Virus record (IMG/VR): IMGVR_UViG_2880372215_000012
Length of the DNA stretch: 38,479 bases
Reading direction: 5' to 3' (one strand)
DNA from: a virus
Lineage: Duplodnaviria > Heunggongvirae > Uroviricota > Caudoviricetes
Positions 37,217 to 38,479 of this stretch are shown here, in pieces. The stretch's first letter is position 1, and each line of letters opens with the position of its first letter. The notes beneath the pieces were generated by a model, which made no database searches, had not been told where the DNA came from, and saw only the letters and a program-made list of their open reading frames with translations. Both the position numbers and the translations under genes were made by a program.

Positions 37217-37435
37217 ATGTACTTGACACTTCAGGAGTGGAACGCACGCCAGCGACGCCCAAGAAGCCTTGAAACAGTTCGTCGATGGGTGCGCGAATGC
37301 AGGATATTCCCTCCTCCGGTTAAGGATGGAAGAGAGTATCTGTTCCACGAATCAGCGGTAAAGGTTGACTTAAATCGACCAGTAACAGGTAGCCTTTTGA
37401 AGAGGATCAGAAATGGGAAGAAGGCGAAGTCATGA
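37217..37435 (+). CDS. xis: Excisionase Xis
   Basis: 72 aa, MYLTLQEWNARQRRPRSLETVRRWVRECRIFPPPVKDGREYLFHESAVKVDLNRPVTGSLLKRIRNGKKAKS; near-identical to lambda Xis; overlaps the int start as in lambda. Confidence 0.95.
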   Translation: MYLTLQEWNARQRRPRSLETVRRWVRECRIFPPPVKDGREYLFHESAVKVDLNRPVTGSLLKRIRNGKKAKS

Positions 37436-38479
37436 GCGCCGGGATTTACCCCCTAACCTTTATATAAGAAACAATATTACTGCTACAGGGACCCAAGGAC
37501 GGGTAAAGAGTTTGGTTTAGGCCGAGACAGGAGGATAGCAATCACTGAAGCAATACAGGCCAATATTGAGTTATTTTCAGGACACAAACACAAGCCTCTG
37601 ACAGCGAGAATCAACAGTGATAATTCTGTTACGTTACATTCATGGCTTGATCGCTACGAAAAAATCCTCGCCAGCAGAGGAATCAAGCAGAAGACACTCA
37701 TAAATTACATGAGCAAAATTAAAGCAATAAGGAGGGGGCTGCCTGATGCTCCACTTGAAGACATCACCACAAAAGAAATTGCGGCAATGCTCAATGGATA
37801 CATAGACGAGGGCAAGGCGGCGTCAGCCAAGTTAATCAGATCAACACTGAGCGATGCATTCCGAGAGGCAATAGCTGAAGGCCATATAACAACAAACCCG
37901 GTCGCTGCCACTCGCGCAGCAAAATCAGAGGTAAGGAGATCAAGACTTACGGCTGACGAATACCTGAAAATTTATCAAGCAGCAGAATCATCACCATGTT
38001 GGCTCAGACTTGCAATGGAACTGGCTGTTGTTACCGGGCAGCGAGTTGGTGATTTATGCGAAATGAAGTGGTCTGATATCGTAGATGGATATCTTTATGT
38101 CGAACAAAGCAAAACAGGCGTAAAAATTGCCATCCCTACAACATTGCATGTTGATGCTCTCGGGATATCAATGAAGGAAACACTTGATAAATGCAAAGAG
38201 ATTCTTGGCGGAGAAACCATAATTGCATCTACTCGTCGTGAACCGCTTTCATCCGGCACAGTATCAAGGTATTTTATGCGCGCACGAAAAGCATCAGGTC
38301 TTTCCTTCGAAGGGGATCCGCCTACCTTTCACGAGTTGCGCAGTTTGTCTGCAAGACTCTATGAGAAGCAGATAAGCGATAAGTTTGCTCAACATCTTCT
38401 CGGGCATAAGTCGGACACCATGGCATCACAGTATCGTGATGACAGAGGCAGGGAGTGGGACAAAATTGAAATCAAATAA
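37413..38479 (+). pseudogene. int: Lambda-type tyrosine integrase Int with a 4-bp deletion after codon 19 (at 37475/37476) causing a frameshift; the remainder of the frame is intact to the stop at the window edge
   Basis: MGRRRSHERRDLPPNLYIRNN then the frame breaks (lambda AACAATGGATATTACTGC versus AACAATATTACTGC here); the original frame resumes with YCYRDPRTGKEFGLGRDRRIAITEAIQANIELF.. and matches lambda Int through ..DDRGREWDKIEIK*. Confidence 0.85.

Follow-up and report, generated by a model that had tools for sequence, protein, structure and literature searches.

An integrase pseudogene disrupted by a 4-bp frameshift in the defective lambda-like prophage Sp3 of Escherichia coli O157:H7

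The last gene of the window analysed here, the whole 38,479-nucleotide stretch of IMG/VR virus record IMGVR_UViG_2880372215_000012, resembles the integrase gene (int) of phage lambda and is interrupted near its 5′ end. The locus raises the question of whether an integrase can still be made from it and, if not, at what stage of prophage decay the gene was lost and what the loss means for the element that carries it. We read int as an integrase pseudogene that belongs to Sp3 (CP-933K), a defective lambda-like prophage of E. coli O157:H7, and that was inactivated by a 4-bp frameshift in a late step of neutral decay; we assign this reading a probability of about 95%. The pseudogene is already annotated in reference genomes, and the failure of Sp3 to excise has already been shown experimentally; what the present analysis adds is a population count and an ordered decay series.

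The 1280 bases at positions 37200–38479, comprising xis and int, are 100% identical to many O157:H7 chromosomes, including those of Sakai and EDL933. The Sakai annotation places this region inside "prophage Sp3, lambda-like phage" (891124..929709) and lists the int remnant as pseudogene ECs_5702; in EDL933 the PGAP label is "tyrosine-type recombinase/integrase, frameshifted" (EDL933_RS29605). Both annotated loci have the same neighbours as the window gene (xis, an ea8.5-like ORF and the ybhC side) and the same frameshift, with no difference in int, whereas the window prophage as a whole differs from the Sakai/EDL933 copy by a 1310-bp IS629-like insertion, absent from that copy, and by the length of two homopolymers. 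With that one insertion excepted, the window, which extends from the nleH1-1 stop codon to the int stop codon, is collinear with Sakai 928364..891197 at 99.99–100% identity and carries nleC, nleB2-1, tail, capsid, packaging and lysis genes, Q, lpxR, pphA and exo (Table 1). On the matching Sakai record, the prophage is integrated at the lambda att core, GCTTTTTTATACTAA, with ybhC and ybhB on either side. Both 15-bp lambda cores lie just outside the window and are exact in Sakai, the P′ arm beside int matches lambda attP at every base as far as the crossover point, and the P arm at attR has one base different from the prophage of the O55:H7 strain CB9615. In addition, the window lacks cI, cro, O and P, has a truncated bet, a split portal gene and a frameshifted int, and carries the nleB2, nleC and nleH1 cargo. 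This set of defects agrees with Table 1 of Asadulghani et al. (2009; PMC2669165), in which integration of Sp3 is scored "D" (defective), repressor and replication functions are absent, the portal is defective and a failure of excision is predicted. Two other lambdoid prophages of Sakai, Sp11 and Sp12, also have a disrupted Int and give no circular form (PMC2669165), but their integrases, sites and lesions are different.

Table 1. Coordinates of the features discussed, in window numbering
Feature	Position	Strand	Basis or remark
nleH1-1	1..891 region		Cargo
nleC	1710..2729		Intact cargo
nleB2-1	2763..3743		Intact cargo
lom	5567..6166		Intact cargo
Portal gene, split by a 1-bp (T) insertion at about 20740	20256..21765	-	Comparison with the intact 502-aa CB9615 portal
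lpxR, lipid A deacylase	29513..30472		Intact cargo
Immunity/replication deletion junction, 7,432 bp, bet′ joined to ninB′	32335..32336	.	BLAST against the CB9615 prophage and its annotation
IS3-family element resembling IS629, 1310 bp, ends TGAACCGCCCCGGG...CCCCGGGGCGGTTCA	33927..35236		Two ORFs
IS629-like ORFs	34856..35182 and 33969..34859	-	
tI-like terminator hairpin	37167-37186	+	Terminator scan
pI CII-binding site, TTGCGTGTAATTGC	37191-37204	+	Position from the annotated pI/CII site of phage 434
xis, intact, 72 aa, overlapping the int start as in lambda	37217..37435	+	Pfam Exc over its full length, E = 3.9e-41
5′ int remnant, 35 aa: 21 native codons and 14 out-of-frame codons, then TAG	37413..37520	+	ORF list, alignment
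Rest of int in the -1 frame (the xis frame): Int residues 23-356 after six non-native codons	37457..38479	+	Translation
4-bp deletion junction in int	37473..37476	+	Alignments; ATGG, TGGA or GGAT missing from AACAATGGATATTAC
Longest canonical-start ORF in the downstream int frame, 256 aa from Met101	37709..38479	+	ORF list; equals the Sakai RefSeq pseudogene ECs_5702

In an alignment of window positions 37400–37560, int (37413..38479) is four bases shorter than the int genes of lambda, 434, HK97 and 2B8, and global alignments of the whole gene with these four contain this single 4-base gap and no other (1067 nt in the window, 1071 nt intact). Mismatches outside the gap number 0 with 2B8, 9 with 434, 12 with HK97 and 19 with lambda, and the xis and int segment is 97.8–99.7% identical to the same phages over 1280 nt. 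At the lesion, the intact AACAATGGATATTAC is replaced by AACAATATTAC, and the gap can be written equally well as int nt 62–65, 63–66 or 64–67 because an AT dinucleotide stands on either side. The flanks thus form a 2-bp AT..AT microhomology, with no tandem repeat at the site. With ATGG restored after int nt 61, the translation equals 2B8 Int residue for residue, and this repaired Int matches lambda Int at 353 of 356 residues, the differences being H164P, A245T and I248V only. The native part of the product made from the window gene is the first 21 codons, MGRRRSHERRDLPPNLYIRNN, with the frame change at residue 22. The original prediction had described int as lambda Int throughout except for a 4-bp loss after codon 19 that ends translation after 35 codons; the loss and the 35-codon ORF are borne out by the alignments and the ORF list, and the position moves to after codon 21. 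It had also proposed comparison with related integrases, and lambda, 2B8, 434 and HK97 all keep the four bases. The int of the window is a null allele, as judged from the 4-bp frameshift in these alignments.

We searched 5426 complete E. coli genomes with probes of 50–54 bases centred on each junction, the seeds of which match only on their own allele. The exact 50-mer across the int deletion occurs in 207 of them, in one chromosomal copy each, including Sakai and EDL933; among the matches listed, the serotype is O157 or O157:H7 in every record that gives one, and the chromosomes of the remaining records are of similar size, 5.3–5.7 Mb. The intact int junction is found in 1793/5426 and the Sp3 immunity-deletion junction (a 50-mer) in 294/5426. 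Carriers of the intact int allele include the O157:H7 strains TW14359, EC4115, SS17, SS52, 644-PT8, LSU61 and 493/89, the O55:H7 strains CB9615, RM12579 and DEC5, and O145:H28. This intact allele (phage 2B8; O157:H7 TW14359, EC4115 and SS17; O55:H7 CB9615; O145:H28) is identical to the window gene at all 1067 shared int positions and differs from it in keeping the four bases, and so a full 356-aa Int (WP_000533643.1); in the O157:H7 and O55:H7 chromosomes examined it occupies the same site beside ybhC. We note that O145:H28 chromosomes carry, at a similar chromosomal coordinate (about 0.79–0.84 Mb), an xis–int segment 100% identical to the intact allele, which suggests a prophage shared or exchanged at the lambda att site across EHEC lineages.

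These counts bear on whether the gap is an artefact of sequencing or assembly that hides an int which is really intact. The source assembly may indeed hold small indel errors, as it has two 1-base homopolymer changes relative to Sakai (29130 and 29234), but the int junction lies outside any homopolymer, close relatives consistently have the four bases, and the same junction 50-mer recurs in independently assembled complete genomes, Sakai and EDL933 included. An artefact is accordingly next to impossible, and sequencing error at int was ruled out on the 207 genomes with an identical junction. Phase variation by slipped-strand mispairing was also rejected: the site offers only the 2-bp microhomology, and the independent EDL933 assemblies among the matches listed have the deletion.

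The native int start codon is kept, with the Shine–Dalgarno sequence AAGAGGA upstream. Translation from this ATG would yield a peptide of 35 residues that includes no catalytic domain and, of the arm-binding domain, no more than the first third; Pfam Arm-DNA-bind_1 (PF09003, 74 positions) matches residues 1–20 only of this ORF, and residues 1–74 of the intact 2B8 allele. The remainder of the gene is well preserved. From 37457 the downstream frame runs open to the natural stop; it has 0 base differences from the intact 2B8 allele, retains all the catalytic residues (R212, K235, H308, R311, H333 and Y342) and matches Pfam Phage_integrase (PF00589) with E = 8e-41, the catalytic domain being complete in the 256-aa ORF. 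Upstream of 37709, the ORF list gives no ATG, GTG or TTG start in this frame, and inspection of the sequence reveals no Shine–Dalgarno sequence before the ATG at 37709. The solved domains of Int comprise residues 1–64 (arm-binding; PDB 1kjk), 74–176 (core-binding; PDB 2oxo) and 177–356, and a product begun at Met101 would have neither the arm-binding domain nor the linker, and its core-binding domain would be missing roughly the first 26 residues (about a quarter). The original prediction, that a restart at Met 37709 loses the N-terminal arm-binding domain, is right about that loss and falls short in that part of the core-binding domain is also gone by the PDB and Pfam mapping.

With lambda Int (PDB 1z1g, 5j0n, 1kjk and 1ae9) the window locus shares the catalytic residues, the xis overlap, the pI/CII site, the att core and the P′ arm; unlike lambda Int, its frame is broken after codon 21, and no complete arm-binding, core-binding or catalytic domain is encoded from the native start. 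Considered as a functional lambda-type tyrosine integrase, the locus is deficient in the arm-binding domain (PF09003, residues 1–64) and in a continuous ORF for the arm, core and catalytic portions, the stop falling after codon 35 and the rest lying in the -1 frame; the catalytic domain and its residues are present, yet without a start codon having a ribosome-binding site. Considered as a pseudogene of the lambda Int family by descent, it has full-length nucleotide homology, the xis overlap and an adjacent attL.

Could an active protein nevertheless be made, either by -1 ribosomal frameshifting within 37457–37520 or from an internal start at Met101 that yields a fragment with residual activity? 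The downstream frame is open from 37457 with all six catalytic residues, the catalytic domain that Pfam detects in the 256-aa ORF is complete, and isolated C-terminal fragments of lambda Int keep some DNA cleavage and topoisomerase activity. Such a product would nonetheless have to arise where inspection of 37455–37520 shows no 0-frame slippery heptamer of the form X XXY YYZ, where any shift within 37457–37520 would leave the arm-binding beta-sheet with residues replaced or lost, and where no ATG, GTG or TTG precedes 37709 and no Shine–Dalgarno sequence precedes that ATG; the Met101 form would in any case be without the arm-binding domain and about 26 core-binding residues, and no circular Sp3 was detected in Sakai (PMC2669165). 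We regard residual activity as very unlikely and retain the reading of int as a null allele. Two specific routes were set aside. Programmed -1 frameshifting has no heptamer to act on, and the lone A-AAG at GTA-AAG would still scramble residues 22–32; a read-through fusion of xis and int, which share a frame, meets the xis TGA (37433–37435) and then an in-frame TAA (37454–37456).

Expression of int in lambda normally depends on pL with N or on the CII-activated pI. The CII site of pI is kept in the window, but the activator gene cII is deleted from the window prophage. A promoter scan of 36700–38479 is uninformative, with one weak match, below the shuffled expectation. pL and N of lambda lie in the bet–ninB interval, and that interval is deleted in the window. 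Both normal routes of int expression would therefore have been lost already before the int deletion arose, and int was probably already silent before the frameshift. The neighbouring xis product, annotated by PGAP as 'excisionase' (WP_001303849.1), is the same protein in EDL933, TW14359 and CB9615.

Lambda excision requires Int on arm and core sites, plus Xis, IHF and Fis, and arm binding is needed for both integrative and excisive recombination. Because excision requires arm- and core-bound Int, the present allele is null for excision; in the absence of Int, attL × attR recombination would be blocked despite intact att sites and xis, and the prophage would not excise. We infer that Sp3 cannot excise, with experimental support in Sakai, where PCR for the circular attP junction is negative with and without mitomycin C and neither replication nor packaging was seen (PMC2669165). 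The view that the prophage is locked in the chromosome, as originally predicted, is upheld by the same result. This negative PCR cannot be attributed to int alone, as pL, N and cII are missing too. Two other candidates were rejected: a further lambda-type int acting in trans from the same genome (in Sakai and EDL933, each record matches at a single place) and damaged att sites as the cause of the lock-in (both cores and the P′ arm are intact). In the list of Shaaban et al. (2016; PMC5359411), SP3 is one of the "fixed" prophages, which are conserved from one O157 strain to another.

The int deletion is one of three lesions considered here, and the order in which they arose can be read from related chromosomes. 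Relative to the O55:H7 CB9615 prophage, the immunity deletion that had been noted earlier removes ninB′, ren, P, O, cII, cro, cI, cIII, kil, gam and part of bet, so that bet′ adjoins the 3′ end of ninB. The portal frameshift, likewise noted earlier, is accompanied by two more substitutions relative to CB9615 at 20741 and 20765, and the split is also present in Sakai and TW14359. The CB9615 prophage, which occupies the same site, has int, xis and the 502-aa portal gene intact, together with a full early region (gam, kil, cIII, a LexA-family repressor, a cro-like gene, cII, O, P, ren and ninB). In CB9615, bet is already frameshifted (16337..17123 of one segment) and the gene for a ClpP-protease/major-capsid fusion has an internal stop (4084..6111 of another segment); the CB9615 copy is therefore decaying too, by different lesions. 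The O157:H7 strain TW14359 has the same bet′–ninE arrangement and split portal as the window, but its int is intact. FWSEC0004 has both the int and the immunity deletions at the expected spacing, and in TR01, SS52 and F7386 the immunity deletion is accompanied by an intact int; the nesting of the 207 int-deleted genomes within the 294 immunity-deleted ones was spot-checked in a few such genomes.

Because int is intact in strains of the TW14359 type, which already have the immunity deletion and the split portal, the int frameshift is a late step, and int was not the first function to be disabled. The series would start from an O55:H7-type ancestor with int, immunity, replication and portal genes intact; a 7.4-kb segment with pL, cI, cro, cII, O and P would then have been deleted in an O157:H7 ancestor, which also gained the portal frameshift; and the sub-lineage that includes Sakai, EDL933, 86-24 and Xuzhou21 would subsequently have lost the four int bases. 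On these comparisons we infer that the int deletion is later than the loss of the repressor, pL, cII and the replication genes, and that it had a single origin, with the nesting seen in a few genomes.

The spread of the deletion, as distinct from its action, might instead be ascribed to positive selection, either for lock-in of the type III secretion (T3SS) cargo (nleB2, nleC, nleH1 and nleD) or for avoidance of costly abortive excision. The cargo genes are intact, the allele is found in 207 genomes against 294 with the immunity deletion (nesting spot-checked), and strains with an intact int also have intact xis, attL and attR, so that occasional loss of the island is possible in principle. 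This frequency, however, is that of clonal expansion and sampling of one lineage, the fitness gap between intact and broken int should be very small once the int promoters and activators were deleted, and the prophage is equally conserved in TW14359, where int is intact (99.98% identity over 18 kb). Selection is on this balance improbable, if less so than residual activity. Because the gene was no longer used and its expression routes were gone, the frameshift is most simply explained by neutral decay; with zero substitutions after the frameshift, there is no dN/dS signal. Nothing observed favours a low-level Met101–356 or frameshift-restored product that acts on lambda-type core sites, nor a selected lock-in of cargo, and we hold this pair of extensions to be highly doubtful. 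If true, the Met101–356 or restored product may be dominant-negative or topoisomerase-like and may hinder incoming phages of lambda specificity at the occupied att site.

The defective Sp3 still carries intact host-interaction cargo (Table 1), with nleD just past the start of the window in Sakai. The IS629-like element sits in a DUF1382 gene of the exo–xis region, flanked by a 3-bp ACC target duplication. The insertion is absent from Sakai, EDL933, TW14359 and CB9615, and its exact junction occurs as a single piece only in the O157 strains AR-0428 and NCCP 15739, which makes a strain of this kind the probable source of the window. Over 37 kb the window departs from Sakai at just two further points, 29130 and 29234, where a C homopolymer in non-coding DNA between Q and lpxR is 1 base shorter; the cause may be genuine variation or errors of long-read sequencing at homopolymers in the source assembly.

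In sum, the observation is correct but ordinary and matters little as a discovery; the modest value of the int deletion is as a clean illustration, with dated steps, of how a prophage becomes domesticated in a major pathogen. The 4-bp deletion is usable as a simple lineage marker (207 genomes against 294 with the immunity deletion, nesting spot-checked), and the 7,432-bp junction (294/5426 genomes) could mark O157:H7. The int deletion would complete the fixation of an element that still carries the T3SS effector genes nleB2, nleC and nleH1, with nleD just outside, and the loss of int is offered as a reason why the effector-carrying Sp3 ranks among the most stable prophages of O157:H7.
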